This document shows positions 4,454 through 47,266 of a stretch of 64,000 bases of DNA, piece after piece. Numbering within the stretch: position 1 is the first letter of the stretch; each line of letters begins with the position of its first letter. The stretch comes from Escherichia coli (lineage in GTDB: Bacteria > Pseudomonadota > Gammaproteobacteria > Enterobacterales > Enterobacteriaceae), in NCBI RefSeq assembly GCF_030013595.1, contig NZ_CP122768.1; one strand, given 5' to 3'. The notes under the pieces are model-generated. The model had not been told where the DNA came from. It ran no database searches and worked only from the letters and a program-made list of their open reading frames with translations. A program made the position numbers and the translations under genes.

Positions 4454-4675
4454 TTAGTGGTTATTCGCTGCCAGATCGGCTTCGCTTAGCTGGGTGGCCG
4501 CGAGCACCAGGTCACGATCAATGCCCTGTTCCAGCATGCGCAAGGCAATTTTAATGGCTTGTTCACGCATACCTTCCTGCAAACCTTCTAATTTACCCTC
4601 CTGCCAGCCTTCAAGCTTACCTTCCTGCCAGCCAATCTGATGCCCTTCCTGCCTCAGCCGTTCAGCAATAGTCAT
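4454..4675 (-). CDS. ypaA: small protein duplicating the Rpn C-terminal tail (YpaA / RpnS-like)
   Basis: 73-aa ORF ([31 protein letters not shown]..) about 85-90% identical at DNA level to the 3' end of rpnB. AAGGAGAG lies just upstream of the ATG at 4675. Confidence 0.6.
   Translation of the reverse strand: MTIAERLRQEGHQIGWQEGKLEGWQEGKLEGLQEGMREQAIKIALRMLEQGIDRDLVLAATQLSEADLAANNH
4572..4643. repeat. three 24-nt tandem units encoding G-W/L-Q-E-G-K/M-x-E octapeptides inside ypaA
   Basis: Period-24 repeat read directly from the sequence (ccttcctgccagcc...). Confidence 0.7.
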
Positions 4676-4687
4676 CAATCTCTCCTT

Positions 4688-5659
4688 TTAATGACAGTTC
4701 GGAATATCAGCATCAGTGAGTTGGGTTGTCGCCAGCACAATCTCACGTTCAAAGCCCTGCTCCAGCATGCGCAAGGCAATTTTAATGGCTTGTTCATGCA
4801 TGCCTTCCTGCAAACCTTCTAATTTCCCCTCCTGCCAACCTTCAATTTTACCTTCCTGCCAGCCTTCAATCTTACCTTCCTGCCAGCCAATTTGATGCCC
4901 TTCCTGCCGCAGCCGCTCAGCAATAGTCATCAATCTCTCCTTTTGTAGTGGTGAACGTTCGGCAATCTCCTGAATAAAACGGGTGAAACGGGAGGTATCG
5001 CCGCATTGCAGCAGATAATTAAACAGCGTTTGTAGCTGGCTGTCATTAGTGAAGCCTCTAACCAAAAGCGTGGTGATCCTGTCGACCATACCGATTAAAT
5101 CGCGGTCGCGAATATGCTTTTGAATCAGTTCAAGCAGAGCTATACGCCGATGTTGCATGATCTCATCGTCAGGTACGATGGTGATATCCACCAACGGAAA
5201 AGCTTCGGTGTACAACTGCCGGGCAAGTTGCGGATCGTCAAACTCATCCAGCCAGTTGAGTGAGTACGGGTAGGGCGAGGTTTCGCCATGATAAAACAGC
5301 AATGGCACCACCAGCGGAACTCTGTCATAGCCTTTATCCAGGTGACGCTGCATGGCGGCAGTGGCATAGCGCATTAGCCGAAAAGCCATATTCTTTTCTG
5401 CAGAGCTTTGATGTTCAATCACGCAGTAGATATAGCCTTCACTGTCGCTGGTTTCCACAGACCACAAAACATCCGAGTAGTAAGCGCGTAAACTTTTTTC
5501 AATAAAGCTGGTGGGTTCCAGGCGTAAAGTTTGCAGGTTGCAAAGCTTGCGCAGCGGCTCTGGTAGATGTATTTCCAGAAAATCCCGAGCGGTTTCGGGT
5601 GTGAACATAAAGGTTTTAAACACCGCATCATGCGGGGAGGAGGTTGTTGATTCGGTCAT
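4688..5659 (-). CDS. rpnB: Rpn-family (YhgA-like, PD-(D/E)XK) recombination-promoting nuclease
   Basis: 323-aa ORF with an N-terminal D..E-H-Q nuclease-like motif (YIYCVIEHQ) and a C-terminal WQEGKxEG repeat tail. An internal AAAAGGAGAG + ATG (MTIAERL..) near 4930 sits in frame with the tail. Confidence 0.8.
4801..4896. repeat. four 24-nt tandem units encoding the octapeptide repeat tail of RpnB
   Basis: Units at 4801..4824 (degenerate), 4825..4848, 4849..4872 and 4873..4896. Confidence 0.7.
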
Positions 5660-11551: not shown

Positions 11552-12628
11552 ATGAAATTGACGCTAAAAAACCTTAGCATGGCGATCATGATGAGTGGAA
11601 TGATCATGGGAAGCAGTGCAATGGCGGCGGATAGCAACGAAAAAATAGTCATCGCCCATCGCGGTGCCAGTGGTTATTTGCCGGAGCATACGCTGCCAGC
11701 AAAAGCGATGGCGTATGCGCAGGGAGCGGATTATCTGGAACAAGATTTGGTGATGACCAAAGACGACCATCTGGTTGTCCTGCATGACCATTATCTCGAT
11801 CGTGTTACTGATGTTGCCGATCGTTTCCCGGCTCGGGCGCGCAAAGACGGTCGTTACTACGCGATAGATTTCACGCTCGATGAAATTAAGTCACTGAAAT
11901 TTACCGAAGGTTTCGATATTGAAAACGGTAAGAAAGTACAGACTTATCCGGGGCGTTTCCCGATGGGTAAGTCCGACTTCCGGGTGCACACCTTTGAAGA
12001 AGAGATTGAATTTGTTCAGGGGTTAAATCACTCTACCGGGAAAAATATCGGTATCTATCCAGAAATTAAAGCGCCGTGGTTCCATCATCAGGAAGGGAAG
12101 GATATTGCGGCAAAAACGCTGGAAGTGCTGAAGAAATATGGTTACACCGATAAGGACGACAAAGTTTATTTGCAATGTTTTGATGCCGATGAACTGAAGC
12201 GTATTAAGAATGAGCTGGAACCTAAAATGGGCATGGACCTCAATCTGGTACAGCTGATTGCCTATACCGACTGGAACGAAACTCAGCAGAAACAACCGGA
12301 CGGAAGCTGGGTTAATTACAACTACGACTGGATGTTTAAGCCGGGGGCCATGAAACAGGTGGCGGAATATGCTGATGGTATTGGTCCGGATTATCATATG
12401 TTGATTGAGGAGACATCGCAGCCAGGTAATATCAAACTCACTGGCATGGTGCAAGATGCTCAGCAGAATAAACTGGTAGTACATCCTTACACCGTGCGGT
12501 CAGATAAGCTGCCTGAATACACTACTGATGTGAATCAGTTATATGATGCTCTGTATAACAAAGCGGGTGTAAATGGGCTGTTTACTGATTTCCCTGATAA
12601 GGCAGTAAAATTCCTAAATAAAGAGTAA
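11552..12628 (+). CDS. glpQ: periplasmic glycerophosphodiester phosphodiesterase
   Basis: ORF 11495..12628 trimmed to the ATG at 11552 (MKLTLKNLSMAIMM.. signal peptide, HRGASGYLPEHT motif); 358 aa. Confidence 0.9.
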   Translation: MKLTLKNLSMAIMMSGMIMGSSAMAADSNEKIVIAHRGASGYLPEHTLPAKAMAYAQGADYLEQDLVMTKDDHLVVLHDHYLDRVTDVADRFPARARKDGRYYAIDFTLDEIKSLKFTEGFDIENGKKVQTYPGRFPMGKSDFRVHTFEEEIEFVQGLNHSTGKNIGIYPEIKAPWFHHQEGKDIAAKTLEVLKKYGYTDKDDKVYLQCFDADELKRIKNELEPKMGMDLNLVQLIAYTDWNETQQKQPDGSWVNYNYDWMFKPGAMKQVAEYADGIGPDYHMLIEETSQPGNIKLTGMVQDAQQNKLVVHPYTVRSDKLPEYTTDVNQLYDALYNKAGVNGLFTDFPDKAVKFLNKE

Positions 12629-12636
12629 TGCTACTG

Positions 12637-12662
12637 CAGGATGGCATTCATGCGCCATCCTG
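12637..12662. terminator. hairpin between convergent glpQ and the LysR gene
   Basis: CAGGATGGC-attcatgc-GCCATCCTG perfect 9-bp stem. Confidence 0.5.
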
Positions 12663-13547
12663 TCTCATATCAAATTTTCCACTCTCCACTAATTGTTCTG
12701 TGCACATTTGTAGTAAAAACAGTGGACTGCCTTCTACCGGCTTTTCTTTAGCCAGCAACGAAATCTGTCGATAGAAGGTTGGTTCGAGAGGAACGGAACA
12801 CAATTCATCTGCAATGGTTTTCAGCGTTAACTCTGGTAATAAGGCGATGCCTAATCCCTGTCGAATAAAACTGATCGCTGTATCCGGGTGATTAAATTCA
12901 TATTTTATCTGTGGGGTAATATTCTTTTCTTTAAATAGTGCCATAATGCTTAATTCATAGCGTCCTTTACTAATAATTAATGGTTCACCCATTAACTCTT
13001 CCACTGTAATAGTGCTGTTTTTTGCCAGAGCATGGTTGGGCGGTAACACTACGGTGAATTTATCCTGATAAATGGGCACGGAGTACATTCCGCTCACCGG
13101 AAAATGAACAAAACCGGCATCAATGGATTCATTCTGAAGGGAATCAATAATCGCTGTGCTATTTTCCTCAAAAGGAATAATTTTTATATTCGGATGATGA
13201 ATTTCAAAGTAGCGAATCACAGCCGGTAAGATACAGGCGCAGACGCTGGGGAAACAACCAAGTCTCAGCGTTCTTTGAGGGTTCTGCTTTTCCTGCTCGG
13301 CTATCTCTTTTACTGCGTTCACTTCCCGATTAATGGCGCGCAGATGATGCATAATGCGGTGACCTGCAGAGGTCAGTTGTATAGCTTTACGGCGATCGCG
13401 TAACAGTATATTCACGCCAAGTTCTTGTTCGAGGGCAGCAATTGCCTGACTTACCGCCGACTGCGTCATGAACAATCGCTTGCTGGCTTCAGTAAAGCCA
13501 CCGTAATCCAGTACGGCGAGTAAAGAATTTATTTGGGTAAGAGTCAT
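12648..13547 (-). CDS. LysR-family transcriptional regulator (intact counterpart of the K-12 yfaH remnant)
   Basis: 299-aa ORF with N-terminal HTH (..FTEASKRLFMTQSAVSQAIAALE..) and a LysR substrate-binding region; AT-rich coding sequence. Confidence 0.8.
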   Translation of the reverse strand: MTLTQINSLLAVLDYGGFTEASKRLFMTQSAVSQAIAALEQELGVNILLRDRRKAIQLTSAGHRIMHHLRAINREVNAVKEIAEQEKQNPQRTLRLGCFPSVCACILPAVIRYFEIHHPNIKIIPFEENSTAIIDSLQNESIDAGFVHFPVSGMYSVPIYQDKFTVVLPPNHALAKNSTITVEELMGEPLIISKGRYELSIMALFKEKNITPQIKYEFNHPDTAISFIRQGLGIALLPELTLKTIADELCSVPLEPTFYRQISLLAKEKPVEGSPLFLLQMCTEQLVESGKFDMRQDGA

Positions 13548-13682
13548 TAGAGTTTGCTAATCAATAATATTAAAACGATTAATTTCTCTAATAGCATGCC
13601 GCCATTTATACTTCTGTTCTGCAAAGTACATCACAATTTGACGCAACCGCAGTAACGGGAGTGTTGTCTGCGAGCGTCATCC

Positions 13683-13701
13683 TGACAGGCGGTAGGGTAT
13701 G
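13683..13701 (+). repeat. 19-bp direct repeat, copy 1 (tgacaggcggtagggtATG), ending at the MFS start codon
   Basis: 18 of 19 nt identical to 14954..14972. Confidence 0.7.
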
Positions 13702-14889
13702 AAAGAGAAGTTATGGACGAAGGATTTTTGGGCAATAACCATCATCAGCTTTATTATTTTCTTCGTCTTTTATGTTTTACTAACATTGTTGCCAATTTAT
13801 ATCTCTGACCGCTTGCATGCCTCTCCTGATAAAGCCGGTTTATTGGTGACTTTATTTTTAATTGCCGCCATTGTTATTCGCCCATTTGCCGGGCAATGGG
13901 TGGGTAAATACTCGAATAAAACTATTCTGGTGCTCTCTTCTCTGGCCTTTTTATTGGTCACAGCGTTGTATCCTTTTTGCCACTCAATTGAATCACTGCT
14001 TTTTATTCGGGTGCTTCATGGTATTACCTTCGGGGTTATCACTACGGTAAAAGGAACGATTTCCGCGCGGCTGATCCCGGCCTCCCGACGTGGGGAGGGC
14101 ATCAGTTTTTTCTCTCTGGCAATGGGGCTGGCAATGGTGGTCGGGCCGTGGATTGGCCTGAATATGGCGCGCTGGGAGGCCTTTAATATGGCTTTCTGGT
14201 TATGCACCGGCGTGGCAGCGGTGGGGATTATTCTGTCGCTGATTATGACAGTGCCGCCGGTTATCAGCCATGCTGATGGTTCAACGCCGAAAATGGGCTT
14301 CGCCGCCATGTTCGATCGCGCGGCGTTGCCATTTGCGATGGTCACCTTTTTTATGACCTTTTCGTATGCCGGGGTTTCTGCTTTTCTGGCGCTTTATGCA
14401 CGCGAACTTAACCTGATGTCGGCAGCCAGTAATTTCCTGCTTTGCTACGCTATCTTCCTGATGATTTGCCGTACCTTTACCGGCAATGTCTGCGACAAAA
14501 AAGGACCGAAATATGTGGTTTACCCTTGCCTTGTGTTCTTTACGGTAGGACTGGTGGTTCTCGGCTACACCCAGGGAAGCATAATGATGGTTGTTTCTGG
14601 CGCATTGATTGGTATCGGGTATGGTTCCGTGACGCCAGTTTTTCAGACGCAGATTATCAGTTCAGTGGAACCGCATAAAATCGGTGTCGCAAACTCCCTC
14701 TTCTTCAATGCGATGGATGCAGGCCTGGCGCTGGGAGCCTGTGTGATGGGGATGATGGTTGCACATACTGGCTACCGAATGATTTATCTGCTGGGTGCAC
14801 TATTAGTGGTAGTGGCTGGTGGAGTCTATGCGCTGCAAATGAAGGGTAAAAGCGGTGTCGCGCTAGTAGTGGCAAAAGAAATTCATTAA
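13699..14889 (+). CDS. MFS transporter, substrate unknown
   Basis: 396-aa ORF with about 12 hydrophobic segments; transcribed divergently from the LysR gene. Confidence 0.8.
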   Translation: MKEKLWTKDFWAITIISFIIFFVFYVLLTLLPIYISDRLHASPDKAGLLVTLFLIAAIVIRPFAGQWVGKYSNKTILVLSSLAFLLVTALYPFCHSIESLLFIRVLHGITFGVITTVKGTISARLIPASRRGEGISFFSLAMGLAMVVGPWIGLNMARWEAFNMAFWLCTGVAAVGIILSLIMTVPPVISHADGSTPKMGFAAMFDRAALPFAMVTFFMTFSYAGVSAFLALYARELNLMSAASNFLLCYAIFLMICRTFTGNVCDKKGPKYVVYPCLVFFTVGLVVLGYTQGSIMMVVSGALIGIGYGSVTPVFQTQIISSVEPHKIGVANSLFFNAMDAGLALGACVMGMMVAHTGYRMIYLLGALLVVVAGGVYALQMKGKSGVALVVAKEIH

Positions 14890-14953
14890 TACGACACGTT
14901 TCATTAAGATTTTTCGCAGGTAACCACCTATAGTCATTGTCGTAAATAAAAAA

Positions 14954-14972
14954 TGACAGGCGATAGGGTATG
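14954..14972 (+). repeat. 19-bp direct repeat, copy 2 (tgacaggcgatagggtATG), ending at the inaA start codon
   Basis: 18 of 19 nt identical to 13683..13701. Confidence 0.7.
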
Positions 14973-15620
14973 GCAGTTTCAGCAAAGCACGACGAATTTA
15001 ATCACTGGTGGGCAACAGAGGGCGACTGGGTTGAAGAGCCTAACTATCGCCGTAATGGTATGAGCGGGGTGCAATGCGTCGAGCGCAACGGCAAAAAGCT
15101 ATATGTAAAGCGCATGACGCATCATCTGTTTCATTCCGTACGTTATCCGTTCGGCCGACCAACGATTGTCCGTGAGGTTGCGGTAATTAAAGAACTGGAA
15201 CGGGCTGGTGTCATCGTGCCGAAGATTGTTTTTGGTGAAGCGGTGAAAATTGAGGGGGAATGGCGCGCGTTGCTGGTGACTGAAGATATGGCGGGGTTCA
15301 TCAGCATTGCTGACTGGTATGCCCGGCATGCAGTAACGCCCTATTCTGACGAAGTACGGCAAGCCATGTTGAAAGCAGTGGCGCTGGCGTTTAAGAAAAT
15401 GCATAGCGTTAATCGTCAGCATGGCTGTTGCTATGTTCGCCATATCTATGTGAAAACAGAAGGTAAGGCAGAAGCTGGATTTCTTGATCTGGAGAAAAGT
15501 CGTCGCCGCTTGCGTCGCGATAAAGCGATTAATCATGACTTCCGCCAGCTGGAAAAATATCTGGAGCCGATCCCCAAAGCGGACTGGGAGCAGGTGAAAG
15601 CGTATTACTACGCCATGTAA
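14970..15620 (+). CDS. inaA: acid-inducible Kdo/WaaP-family kinase-like protein
   Basis: 216-aa ORF recognised by recall of InaA. Confidence 0.85.
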   Translation: MAVSAKHDEFNHWWATEGDWVEEPNYRRNGMSGVQCVERNGKKLYVKRMTHHLFHSVRYPFGRPTIVREVAVIKELERAGVIVPKIVFGEAVKIEGEWRALLVTEDMAGFISIADWYARHAVTPYSDEVRQAMLKAVALAFKKMHSVNRQHGCCYVRHIYVKTEGKAEAGFLDLEKSRRRLRRDKAINHDFRQLEKYLEPIPKADWEQVKAYYYAM

Positions 15621-15623
15621 TCG

Positions 15624-15665
15624 TTGTAGGCCAGATAATACGCGTAAGCGTCGTATCTGGCGCTA
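15624..15665. repeat. REP-like palindromic element
   Basis: gccagataatacgcgtaagcgtcgtatctggc inverted repeat between inaA and yfaE. Confidence 0.5.
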
Positions 15666-15673
15666 GTACCCGA

Positions 15674-15928
15674 TCACAACTCGATTTCAATATCGCCTTT
15701 TGCCCGGCAACAACAGGGCAAAATTTCCCCCGGCTGAATAAAGGCTAACGGTTCGGCAATCCAGTCCACCTGGCCTGCAACAAGGCGCGTGCGACAGGAA
15801 CCGCAGTAACCTTCGCGGCACTGGTACTCAACCGCCACATTGTGGGATTCCAGCGCCGCCAGAAGGGAAGGGTGTTCATCCTGGCACAGCAGTTGTGTGC
15901 CAGTGATGCGCAGGGTAACGCGAGCCAT
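15674..15928 (-). CDS. yfaE: 2Fe-2S ferredoxin associated with ribonucleotide reductase
   Basis: 84-aa ORF with Cys cluster (CREGYCGSC..C); start overlaps the nrdB stop. Confidence 0.88.
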   Translation of the reverse strand: MARVTLRITGTQLLCQDEHPSLLAALESHNVAVEYQCREGYCGSCRTRLVAGQVDWIAEPLAFIQPGEILPCCCRAKGDIEIEL

Positions 15929-44250: not shown

Positions 44251-44416
44251 GCTGAAATCCACTAGTCTTGTCCGGTATATGACGATTATCAGAGGTTAAG
44301 GTGATGATTTCTCGGCGGTGTATCATATTCCAGAGAAGAGAGAACATTGCGGTAACACGCTTTTACCGCTACCTTAACCACACTCCATCGGTCACCTGAG
44401 GCGGAGCTTCGCCCCT

Positions 44417-47266
44417 TTGAAATACCTTGCTTCTTTTCGTACAACCCTGAAAGCCTCGCGCTACATGTTCAGAGCATTGGCGTTAGTGCTCTGGCTGTTG
44501 ATTGCTTTTTCATCCGTTTTTTACATCGTTAATGCGTTACATCAGCGAGAATCGGAAATTCGTCAGGAATTTAATCTGAGTTCCGATCAGGCTCAGCGCT
44601 TTATTCAACGTACCTCTGATGTGATGAAAGAGCTGAAGTACATCGCTGAAAATCGCTTATCGGCAGAAAACGGTGTGCTTTCCCCGCGTGGACGAGAAAC
44701 GCAGGCGGATGTGCCTGCGTTTGAACCGCTGTTTGCCGACTCCGATTGTTCCGCAATGAGTAACACCTGGCGAGGCTCTCTGGAGTCATTGGCGTGGTTT
44801 ATGCGCTACTGGCGCGATAATTTTTCTGCGGCTTACGATCTCAACCGGGTATTTTTAATCGGCAGCGATAACCTCTGCATGGCCAATTTCGGTCTGCGTG
44901 ATATGCCAGTGGAACGCGATACCGCGTTGAAAGCGTTGCATGAACGCATCAATAAATATCGAAATGCACCACAAGATGATAGCGGCAGTAACCTCTACTG
45001 GATCAGCGAAGGTCCGCGCCCTGGCGTCGGGTATTTTTACGCGTTGACGCCAGTTTATCTGGCGAACCGGTTGCAGGCGCTTTTGGGTGTCGAGCAGACC
45101 ATCCGGATGGAGAACTTTTTCTTACCTGGTACGTTGCCGATGGGGGTTACCATTCTTGATGAAAATGGTCATACCCTGATTTCGCTTACCGGACCAGAAA
45201 GCAAAATTAAGGGCGATCCTCGCTGGATGCAGGAACGCTCCTGGTTTGGCTATACGGAAGGGTTCCGGGAGCTGGTGCTGAAGAAAAATCTGCCACCCTC
45301 ATCGCTAAGCATCGTGTATTCGGTGCCGGTTGATAAGGTGCTGGAACGCATTCGCATGTTGATCCTTAACGCAATTTTGCTGAATGTGCTTGCCGGAGCT
45401 GCATTGTTTACTCTCGCGCGGATGTACGAGCGACGTATTTTCATTCCGGCGGAAAGCGACGCCCTGCGACTGGAAGAACATGAGCAGTTTAATCGCAAGA
45501 TTGTCGCCTCCGCGCCAGTGGGTATCTGCATTTTGCGTACCGCTGATGGCGTCAATATTTTAAGTAACGAACTGGCGCATACCTATCTCAATATGCTTAC
45601 GCATGAGGATCGCCAACGACTGACGCAAATTATCTGTGGGCAGCAGGTCAATTTTGTTGATGTCCTGACCAGCAACAATACCAATCTGCAAATCAGCTTC
45701 GTCCATTCGCGCTATCGTAATGAAAACGTGGCCATTTGTGTGCTGGTGGATGTTTCTTCGCGCGTGAAGATGGAAGAGTCGTTGCAGGAGATGGCACAAG
45801 CAGCGGAACAGGCGAGCCAGTCAAAATCGATGTTCCTTGCCACCGTCAGTCATGAGCTGCGAACGCCGCTGTATGGCATTATCGGTAACCTGGATCTGTT
45901 GCAAACCAAAGAGTTACCGAAAGGCGTCGATCGTCTGGTGACGGCAATGAACAACTCTTCCAGCCTGTTGTTGAAAATTATCAGCGATATTCTCGATTTC
46001 TCGAAAATTGAATCAGAACAGTTGAAGATCGAACTGCGTGAGTTTTCACCGCGTGAAGTGATGAACCATATCACCGCCAACTATTTACCGCTGGTGGTAC
46101 GCAAGCAGCTAGGCTTGTACTGCTTTATTGAACCGGATGTGCCAGTGGCCTTAAATGGCGACCCGATGCGTTTACAGCAGGTCATCTCCAACCTGTTGAG
46201 TAACGCCATAAAATTCACCGATACCGGCTGTATAGTTTTGCATGTTCGCGCTGATGGCGATTATCTCTCTATCCGCGTTCGCGATACCGGCGTGGGGATT
46301 CCGGCGAAAGAAGTGGTGCGCTTGTTTGATCCCTTCTTCCAGGTCGGAACGGGCGTACAGCGTAACTTCCAGGGGACCGGTCTGGGGCTGGCGATTTGTG
46401 AAAAACTGATCAGCATGATGGACGGCGACATCTCGGTAGATTCAGAACCGGGAATGGGCAGCCAGTTTACCGTGCGTATTCCGTTGTACGGCGCTCAGTA
46501 CCCGCAGAAAAAAGGCGTGGAAGGGTTGAGTGGTAAACGCTGCTGGCTGGCGGTCCGCAATGCGTCGCTCTGTCAGTTCCTGGAAACCAGTTTGCAGCGC
46601 AGCGGCATCGTCGTTACAACATACGAAGGGCAGGAACCGACTCCCGAAGATGTGTTAATCACTGACGAGGTAGTGAGTAAAAAATGGCAGGGCAGAGCGG
46701 TAGTGACCTTCTGTCGTCGCCATATTGGTATTCCGCTGGAGAAAGCGCCAGGGGAGTGGGTACACAGTGTGGCTGCCCCGCATGAGCTACCGGCATTGTT
46801 GGCGCGTATTTATTTGATCGAGATGGAGAGCGACGATCCTGCTAACGCTCTGCCGTTAACGGACAAAGCGGTCAGCGATAATGACGATATGATGATTCTG
46901 GTCGTGGATGATCATCCGATTAACCGACGTCTGCTGGCAGATCAGTTGGGATCGTTGGGTTATCAATGTAAAACCGCGAATGATGGCGTCGATGCGCTTA
47001 ATGTACTTAGCAAGAATCATATTGATATCGTGCTTAGCGACGTCAACATGCCAAATATGGATGGTTACCGCTTGACGCAACGCATTCGTCAGTTGGGACT
47101 GACGTTGCCGGTAATCGGAGTAACTGCTAATGCGTTGGCTGAAGAGAAGCAGCGGTGTCTGGAGTCCGGTATGGACAGCTGCCTGTCGAAGCCGGTAACG
47201 CTGGATGTGATAAAACAGACGCTAACGGTATATGCCGAGAGGGTCAGGAAATCGCGGGATTCGTAG
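44417..47266 (+). CDS. rcsC: hybrid sensor kinase of the Rcs phosphorelay
   Basis: 949-aa ORF with H-box SHELRTPL and C-terminal receiver domain; the ORF start at 44417 is a TTG. Confidence 0.9.
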   Translation: MKYLASFRTTLKASRYMFRALALVLWLLIAFSSVFYIVNALHQRESEIRQEFNLSSDQAQRFIQRTSDVMKELKYIAENRLSAENGVLSPRGRETQADVPAFEPLFADSDCSAMSNTWRGSLESLAWFMRYWRDNFSAAYDLNRVFLIGSDNLCMANFGLRDMPVERDTALKALHERINKYRNAPQDDSGSNLYWISEGPRPGVGYFYALTPVYLANRLQALLGVEQTIRMENFFLPGTLPMGVTILDENGHTLISLTGPESKIKGDPRWMQERSWFGYTEGFRELVLKKNLPPSSLSIVYSVPVDKVLERIRMLILNAILLNVLAGAALFTLARMYERRIFIPAESDALRLEEHEQFNRKIVASAPVGICILRTADGVNILSNELAHTYLNMLTHEDRQRLTQIICGQQVNFVDVLTSNNTNLQISFVHSRYRNENVAICVLVDVSSRVKMEESLQEMAQAAEQASQSKSMFLATVSHELRTPLYGIIGNLDLLQTKELPKGVDRLVTAMNNSSSLLLKIISDILDFSKIESEQLKIELREFSPREVMNHITANYLPLVVRKQLGLYCFIEPDVPVALNGDPMRLQQVISNLLSNAIKFTDTGCIVLHVRADGDYLSIRVRDTGVGIPAKEVVRLFDPFFQVGTGVQRNFQGTGLGLAICEKLISMMDGDISVDSEPGMGSQFTVRIPLYGAQYPQKKGVEGLSGKRCWLAVRNASLCQFLETSLQRSGIVVTTYEGQEPTPEDVLITDEVVSKKWQGRAVVTFCRRHIGIPLEKAPGEWVHSVAAPHELPALLARIYLIEMESDDPANALPLTDKAVSDNDDMMILVVDDHPINRRLLADQLGSLGYQCKTANDGVDALNVLSKNHIDIVLSDVNMPNMDGYRLTQRIRQLGLTLPVIGVTANALAEEKQRCLESGMDSCLSKPVTLDVIKQTLTVYAERVRKSRDS

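Follow-up and report, generated by a model that had tools for sequence, protein, structure and literature searches.

A 19-nucleotide repeat at the start codons of inaA and a strain-variable transporter gene of Escherichia coli is a candidate GcvB pairing module

We analysed a stretch of 64,000 nucleotides (nt) of Escherichia coli DNA (NCBI RefSeq assembly GCF_030013595.1, contig NZ_CP122768.1), referred to here as the window, with a focus on a 19-nt direct repeat that covers the start codons of inaA and of a neighbouring gene for a transporter of the major facilitator superfamily (MFS). The genes at this locus lie in the order glpT-glpQ-[LysR]-[MFS]-inaA-yfaE-nrdB-nrdA, and the window matches the genome of a pig isolate with 100% identity. 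The LysR gene (12648-13547, minus strand), delimited by its open reading frame (ORF) and by the RefSeq annotation of the identical genome, encodes a LysR-type transcriptional regulator (LTTR) of 299 amino acids (aa) with the Pfam domains HTH_1 (PF00126, residues 3-63, E=1.2e-17) and LysR_substrate (PF03466, residues 88-267, E=1.5e-36). It is transcribed divergently from the MFS gene (13699-14889, plus strand), whose 396-aa product matches MFS_1 (E=8e-45) over residues 14-336, with an additional match in its second half, and contains about 11 hydrophobic segments in a crude hydropathy scan. All NCBIfam matches to the transporter fell far below the family cut-offs, the best being PRK05122, which scored 110 bits where 374 are required; YdeA, NepI and YdeE were at most 23% identical, and SetC gave a local match of 42 residues only. 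Judged from these matches, the protein appears to be a generic MFS_1 member with efflux-like similarity only. Downstream, inaA (14970-15620, plus strand) encodes the 216-aa lipopolysaccharide kinase family protein InaA (NCBIfam equivalog NF007383, 510 bits). The GC content is 43.1% in the LysR gene, 48.3% in the MFS gene, 45.6% in glpQ, 50.2% in inaA and 51.7% in the whole window. Neither the ORF list nor the RefSeq annotation contained a transposase or integrase ORF between glpQ and yfaE, and a repeat search found no flanking inverted repeats. Among the papers searched under the K-12, Salmonella and O157 locus tags, none examined the LysR/MFS pair, and the matches were incidental mentions.

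The two copies of the repeat are located at 13683-13701 (TGACAGGCGGTAGGGTATG; plus strand), where the repeat comprises the Shine-Dalgarno (SD) sequence and ATG of the MFS gene, and at 14954-14972 (TGACAGGCGATAGGGTATG; plus strand), in the translation-initiation region of inaA. They are identical at 18 of 19 positions, and both end on the G of the start codon. No further copy of the 19-mer was present in the window or in 100 shuffles. When the leaders (-16 to -1) of the window's 46 annotated genes were compared with one another, the MFS and inaA leaders agreed at 15 of 16 positions; among the 1035 pairs the next best score was 12 and the mean about 4.4. Identity between the MFS and inaA leaders ends sharply at -17 and past the ATG. 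A sequence-only reading of this DNA had described the divergent gene pair and the near-perfect repeat, and both descriptions were confirmed, as was the presence of the repeat in independent assemblies, the MFS-side copy being found in 1119 complete E. coli genomes. Its statement that the pair is AT-rich relative to its neighbours is true only weakly, as the values given above show. Three other roles for the repeat were considered and rejected. A structured RNA or riboswitch in the leaders found no support in the folding z-scores (-0.5 to +1.6), and Rfam returned two sub-threshold chance matches. A CsrA site is suggested by inaA leaders of other genera, which resemble ANGGA, but on a reading of the sequence the E. 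coli module has no GGA. An operator for a dimeric transcription factor was dismissed because, by the same kind of reading, the 19-mer lacks dyad symmetry.

inaA is a verified target of the small RNA (sRNA) GcvB through the R3 seed (PMC9299463; PMC8313858), and physical interaction between GcvB and inaA on Hfq, of the kind recorded by ligating and sequencing interacting RNAs (RIL-seq), by crosslinking, ligation and sequencing of hybrids (CLASH) or by RNA sequencing after MS2-affinity purification (MAPS), has been published for K-12 (PMC9299463, Table 1). We retrieved GcvB from an E. coli genome (Rfam RF00022, 199 bits), and its numbering fits G156, G160 and C162 of PMC9299463. Since RNAduplex applied to long sequences gave over-extended duplexes, pairing was instead assessed with the search restricted to the seed and compared with null sets and positive controls. 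In this analysis GcvB nt 150-162 (UACCCUGUCUGUC) are predicted to pair with positions -15 to +1 of the mRNA (GACAGGC[GNU]AGGGUA) through 13 base pairs and a 3-nt bulge. The energy of the predicted duplex is -18.3 kcal/mol for the inaA and the MFS module alike, the sole difference between the two copies (G/A at -7) falls into the bulge, and SD and AUG are both covered. The module is the best R3 site along the entire inaA mRNA and the entire MFS mRNA, R3 is conversely the best-pairing GcvB segment for both start regions, and the R3 duplex was retained in the minimum-free-energy dimers of full-length cofolding. The other 44 start regions of the window averaged -8.5 kcal/mol, with -14.8 kcal/mol as the best value, and 0.45% of random 28-mers reached -18 kcal/mol. 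Positive controls from K-12 (map, phoP, ydeE, sucC and panD) gave -15.2 to -18.4 kcal/mol and six negative controls -5 to -11.7 kcal/mol; the method also recovered the published C-8:G160 pairs of map and sucC. MFS leaders of the ancestral type, including that of a xenologous E. coli allele described below, reached -6 to -12 kcal/mol, which is background. On these predicted duplexes the MFS gene is a predicted new, strain-specific GcvB target.

Comparison of leaders across genomes bears on the question to which of the two genes the module belonged originally. inaA leaders of ten other lineages have TAACGGRYGGTA in common. A genome of a different genus (L048; nrdB 87% identical to that of E. coli and no more than 87.5% to any sequence compared) has no MFS gene, and its inaA leader, TAACGGGCGGTAGGGT followed by ATG, matches the E. 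coli MFS leader at 14/16 positions and the E. coli inaA leader at 13/16. Orthologous MFS leaders elsewhere end in CTGGACAGGTTGTCGAAT or CTGAACGGGTCGTTAAGA. The closest of them, from Citrobacter (GGACAGGTTGTCGAAT), differs from the Escherichia MFS leader at six positions (-16, -9, -8, -5, -3 and -2), and at all six Escherichia has the inaA state. Because of the shared TAACGGRYGGTA leaders, the match in the MFS-less genome and these six changes, the 16-nt leader is native to inaA. The module is carried on the MFS gene by E. coli, E. whittamii and E1V33, which places it there before E. coli split from the other two lineages, and in Escherichia it took the place of an MFS leader of the Citrobacter/Salmonella type. 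Ancient homology of the two leaders was rejected, since MFS and inaA leaders outside Escherichia agree on average at 5.1/16 positions, which is background. Where both genes occur side by side without the module, the leaders are unlike by hand count (6/16 in the Pseudocitrobacter metagenome-assembled genome (MAG) L016, 5/16 in L050 and 7/16 in the E. coli allele typified by strain 3PT); the gene arrangement therefore does not generate the repeat. As a separate observation, the inaA leaders of L044, L046, L049 and L053 (-21 to -1) contain the conserved inaA leader motif of other genera, (A)CUAUAACGGAUGG, which is complementary to the 3' half of GcvB R3 (CUGUCCAUAGU) in a register other than that of the E. 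coli module, with energies of -13 to -19 kcal/mol. GcvB control of inaA may thus be older than Escherichia, with a shift in pairing register.

The alleles of the locus were counted in 5426 complete E. coli genomes. About 1219-1231 of them carry the full LysR-MFS pair, and 3112 carry the K-12-type allele, a deletion of 1879 bp whose junction, read directly, is a single copy of the 8-bp sequence TTTATCTG. A repeat search and the K-12 junction place the left copy of TTTATCTG, at the left end of the deletion, at 12904-12911 and the right copy, at its right end, at 14783-14790, inside the LysR and MFS genes, respectively, and apart from the 19-nt module. The alignment with K-12 and other E. coli genomes that the sequence-only reading had proposed thus mapped the endpoints, and its statement that K-12 has only yfaH at this position proved correct: in MC1061 the LysR gene survives as 243 bp at its 3' end and the MFS gene as 105 bp (35 codons) at its own, and the K-12 yfaH pseudogene is a C-terminal LysR remnant comprising the last 80 codons (about residues 213-291). 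NCBIfam model PRK09729, which was built on the K-12 YfaH fragment, matches residues 226-291 of the intact regulator. Roughly 1060 genomes have a B2/ST131-type allele, a larger and older deletion of ~2.1 kb with endpoints that differ from those of the K-12 type and with degenerate remnants of the LysR and MFS 3' ends. A synthetic query representing the junction that recombination between the two modules would leave (LysR-intergenic-19mer-inaA) was found in 0 of the 5426 genomes. Every deletion allele retains the 80 bp upstream of inaA that hold inaA's own promoter. In most E. coli, the LysR-MFS pair is lost through microhomology deletions unrelated to the 19-mer; the variable locus and the yfaH pseudogene as such are already known and ordinary.

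Two other allele types occur. In 1053 of the genomes, O157:H7 included, a segment of 1709 bp with 33.6% GC separates the glpQ terminator from the LysR stop codon at ~12660 (L003:766-2474). It is absent from other Escherichia species and therefore represents an insertion; it also occurs together with the K-12-type deletion, and it encodes a 356-aa ORF for which Pfam and NCBIfam yielded no family match. The annotation of O157:H7 FRIK944 lists glpQ, which has an internal stop there, as a pseudogene (L003:1-729). The second type, present in ~105 E. coli genomes (strain 3PT, L056:2286-3500; corresponding to ~12600-13880 of the window), is a xenologous segment with ~76-80% identity that spans the LysR gene, the control region and the start of the MFS gene (its leader and first ~60 codons), after which an ordinary E. 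coli MFS body follows. Its nearest relative is Salmonella arizonae (78%), and it carries neither the 19-nt module nor complementarity to GcvB.

Outside E. coli, the order glpQ-LysR-MFS-yfaE is found in Salmonella arizonae/diarizonae, many Citrobacter, Kluyvera, Klebsiella spallanzanii, Superficieibacter, Phytobacter and Pluralibacter, with synteny extending across about ten enterobacterial genera; tblastn matches to GlpQ served as a marker of glpQ presence only, and their identity values were not used. Genomes with this order outside Escherichia lack inaA, and the stop codons of MFS and yfaE are a few bases apart. The complete arrangement glpQ-LysR-MFS-inaA-yfaE is present in other Escherichia species, and glpQ-inaA-yfaE without LysR and MFS in E. 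fergusonii, C. tructae, C. sedlakii, Intestinirhabdus and lineages L047-L049. MFS and inaA occur together in Escherichia species, in the Pseudocitrobacter MAG and in L050. Because synteny is held across genera, absence of the pair in E. coli is a loss, and the simplest account of the distribution would be an ancestor with both MFS and inaA followed by differential loss. The LysR-MFS pair is thus an ordinary, ancient regulator-transporter unit: the sequence-only reading had called it a strain-variable accessory cassette, of which the variability holds and the acquisition does not. E. fergusonii was considered as an outgroup and set aside, as its inaA (L043:3501-4151) is 76.7% identical to that of E. 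coli while the flanking yfaE, nrdB and nrdA reach 97%, so that it is xenologous and hence uninformative for polarity; these values indicate inter-genus allelic replacement of the glpQ-inaA segment, and the locus looks like a recombination hotspot across the Enterobacteriaceae. Beyond this family, two Firmicute genomes, Desulfosporosinus sp. FKB (L027) and Bacillus sp. EB600 (L029), encode MFS homologues with 55% protein identity whose genes share their first 21 nt (ATGAAAGAAAAATTATGGACG) with those of Salmonella and Citrobacter, and the Neobacillus loci L031-L033 encode both an MFS protein (~34% identity) and a LysR protein (~36%). On these similarities the LysR-MFS unit may have been transferred between phyla. 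A 3.5-kb contig from a 'Collinsella sp.' MAG (L030) encodes LysR at 99% protein identity and, at 100% protein identity to the window, the first 194 codons of the MFS gene; almost certainly, this bin was contaminated with E. coli DNA.

Taken together, we tentatively read the 19-nt repeat as a translation-initiation module that inaA and the MFS gene share and that is complementary to the GcvB R3 seed, whether it arose by copying or by convergence, a view to which we give somewhat less than even credence. The module is inaA's own leader. In an ancestor shared by E. coli, E. whittamii and related Escherichia, the last 16 nt of the MFS leader would have come to match it, most likely because the inaA leader, 1.27 kb downstream, served as template for a short copying event (gene conversion or template switch). 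Pairing of R3 over SD and AUG would then block ribosome binding, and InaA, together with the MFS protein where present, would be repressed by GcvB. The more specific proposal that a ready-made sRNA-response element was transplanted, i.e. that the 16-nt inaA ribosome-binding region with its GcvB-R3 site was copied onto the MFS gene and recruited it to the GcvB regulon in a single step, is rather doubtful. It competes with a reading that keeps the same R3 function and explains the similarity by point mutations converging under selection for the same 13-nt seed and register, with no copying, which is unlikely and nevertheless has concrete points in its favour: the predicted duplex puts 13 of the 16 shared positions into base pairs with GcvB, four of the six Escherichia-versus-Citrobacter changes (-9, -5, -3 and -2) create new GcvB pairs, and ancestral MFS leaders already hold a partial seed, GRACAGG, at -7 to -12. 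What speaks for copying is the identical register, the 3-nt bulge at the same position in both modules and the fact that three of the four unpaired positions are identical, the base found in inaA having been newly acquired by the MFS lineage at two of them (-16 and -8). In addition, 15/16 identity exceeds that of any pair of verified R3 targets, which reach 11/16 at most, and a perfect complement (GACAGACAGGGUA) would have been an equal or better endpoint for selection. We prefer copying over convergence modestly. Several points weigh against the R3-module reading as a whole or against its copying route. The two routes are hard to separate cleanly, given that the leaders of the unlinked genes map and sucC, which use the same R3 register and demonstrate convergence elsewhere, are already 11/16 identical; a templated patch of 16 nt is mechanistically unusual where the two sites are non-homologous and lie 1.27 kb from each other; the location of pairing within inaA is a prediction of this analysis; RNAduplex energies take no account of accessibility or Hfq; and in the O157:H7 clade the MFS copy has a G-to-A change at -3 that weakens the predicted duplex to -15.7 kcal/mol, so that pairing is not strictly maintained.

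This last substitution also fits the view that the leader was copied or drifted neutrally and that the GcvB complementarity of the MFS gene is a by-product without regulatory effect, for example because the mRNA is rare or its 5' end inaccessible. Also consistent with neutrality, conservation among Escherichia species is even along all 45 nt upstream of the ATG of the MFS gene, with no extra constraint on the 16-mer, ~105 E. coli genomes do without the module, and the leaders have neither significant RNA structure nor an Rfam family. We consider such a by-product somewhat less likely again than convergence: according to the literature inaA is a functional GcvB target, and it has the same predicted site; the duplex over SD and AUG has the usual repressive geometry, and its energy lies at the top of the range of verified R3 targets. 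The sequence-only reading had instead proposed that the transporter could be precisely lost or gained through the repeat, or that the repeat is the scar of such an event. Direct repeats as short as this do cause deletions here, as the 8 bp used by the K-12-type deletion demonstrate, and the MFS gene is bracketed exactly by the repeat. But the predicted 1271-bp deletion junction was missing from all genomes counted, all observed deletions have other endpoints, and such a deletion would take away inaA's own MarA-dependent promoter. As to a scar, the MFS gene is found at this very position in about ten genera that lack the repeat, it co-occurs with inaA and a dissimilar leader in L016, L050 and the ~105 xenologous E. 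coli genomes (L056), mobility genes are lacking, and the 'empty site' alleles keep MFS and LysR remnants. The mechanism is thus very improbable and largely refuted, the observation behind it stands, and a GcvB-R3 site is the better, testable explanation. Slighter still is the prospect that two SD regions are alike by chance. Leaders are compositionally biased, with a tail of leader-leader identity of up to 12/16 in the window, and both lineages ancestrally have an SD-like core of ACAGG or ACGG; against this, 15/16 is an outlier among the leader pairs of the window, MFS and inaA leaders outside Escherichia agree no better than background, and six out of six lineage-specific changes went towards the inaA state.

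What is new here is that the repeat falls on the site where GcvB is predicted to pair with one of its verified targets and that the same predicted site lies on a transporter gene missing from K-12. Because K-12 does not have the MFS gene, screens for GcvB targets missed it. If the prediction is right, a strain-specific member joins one of the largest sRNA regulons, and the acquisition of its target site, by copy or by convergence, would be a rare datable case. It would also hint at an amino-acid- or peptide-related substrate for the transporter, because the GcvB regulon comprises amino-acid and peptide transport, including the MFS exporter YdeE. A templated transplant, if that is what took place, would be a way of sRNA-regulon growth distinct from the gradual gain of seed matches by point mutation. 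Natural E. coli alleles with and without the module (the Escherichia-type and the 3PT-type leader) would provide a built-in test with allelic controls. More generally, a repeat that brackets a variable gene need not be the cause of its variability.

The LysR and MFS genes are separated by a control region of 151 bp (13548-13698) with conserved blocks in an alignment of 19 orthologous intergenic regions. Within it, ATTAAAACGATTAAT at 13569-13583 (ATTAA-N5-TTAAT, T-N11-A) is nearly invariant across Escherichia, Salmonella, Citrobacter, Kluyvera, Klebsiella, Superficieibacter and Leminorella, and is assigned as a putative LTTR box, likely bound by the regulator, because it follows the T-N11-A rule of the family. 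By binding there the LTTR would control the divergent transporter; by analogy with the family it would autoregulate and, with co-inducer, activate the transporter gene. Further towards the MFS gene, a leader block at its 5' end (13650-13682), TGCG(T/C)GCGCC(G/A)TCTGAACAGG, is conserved across most MFS-carrying genera and degenerate in Kluyvera ascorbata, Pseudocitrobacter and Leminorella, and the last ~9 nt before the ATG vary freely; the block could be an LTTR activation site, a promoter element or a weak ancestral R3 seed. Between MFS and inaA, a candidate inaA promoter was read from the sequence at 14893-14935 (plus strand), with a marbox-like element, ACGACACGTTTCATTAAGAT, at 14893-14912 and a -10 element, TATAGT, at 14930-14935. 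PinaA is activated by MarA (PMC5257004), and the TATAKT element and an upstream TTAAG block are conserved in inaA-only genomes. At the other end, the glpQ terminator is a hairpin (CAGGATGGC/GCCATCCTG) at 12637-12662 whose loop holds the LysR stop codon; comparison with O157:H7 places the 1709-bp insert of other strains at this site (~12660). Between inaA and yfaE, a sub-threshold Rfam match to naRNA4 (27 bits, E=0.046; 15629-15696) overlaps a 14-nt inverted repeat (15630-15661) and is probably a repetitive extragenic palindromic (REP)-type element. Elsewhere in the window, an ISNCY-family transposase with an adjoining truncated hypothetical gene lies downstream of yfaU (4454-5659) and an IS3-family element between atoS and rcsC (44402-45630); according to the RefSeq annotation of the identical genome, both are strain-specific insertion sequence (IS) insertions.

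Set beside known systems, the locus departs from an insertion scar or target-site duplication in that MFS-less alleles keep remnants of LysR and MFS and offer no clean single-copy empty site. The signature of a direct-repeat deletion substrate, a junction consisting of a single repeat copy, is present for TTTATCTG and not for the 19-mer. The K-12-type deletion that left yfaH involves the same locus and took place between short direct repeats, as in classical illegitimate recombination, but it used the 8-bp sequence within both genes rather than the 19-nt module; beyond the K-12 case, the species also has a second, independent deletion allele (the B2 type), one that carries an insertion and one that is xenologous. 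As a divergent LysR/MFS pair, the unit resembles others of its kind in its HTH_1 and LysR_substrate domains, in a 151-bp promoter region with a T-N11-A dyad, in a transporter with ~12 transmembrane segments and in being kept as a unit down to the Bacillaceae (Neobacillus); it differs in having no characterised orthologue here, with all NCBIfam matches under family cut-offs.

The postulated copying event would resemble short-tract ectopic gene conversion or quasi-repeat mutagenesis, as a patch of 16-19 nt would have been made identical to a nearby template in direct orientation and the tract is framed by pre-existing microhomology (GACAGG, GT and ATG). Known cases, in contrast, involve homologous genes or quasi-repeats tens of bases apart; the flanks in the present case share no homology and lie 1.27 kb from each other, and the event itself is inferred. 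The closest comparison is with the targets of GcvB R3, which, from work attributed to Coornaert (2013), Lalaouna (2019) and Miyakoshi (2021), reportedly comprise inaA, phoP, ydeE, map, sucC and panD. The MFS gene is set apart from these targets by its absence from K-12 and its predicted status, by a site that is a near-exact duplicate of its neighbour's rather than an independent partial match, and by not being a close paralogue of YdeE (no significant similarity). It shares with them complementarity to the same single-stranded R3 loop (nt ~150-168) overlapping SD and AUG, and a predicted energy of -18.3 kcal/mol within the verified range of -15.2 to -18.4 kcal/mol; inaA is itself a verified member of this group, and ydeE, another R3 target, likewise encodes an MFS exporter.

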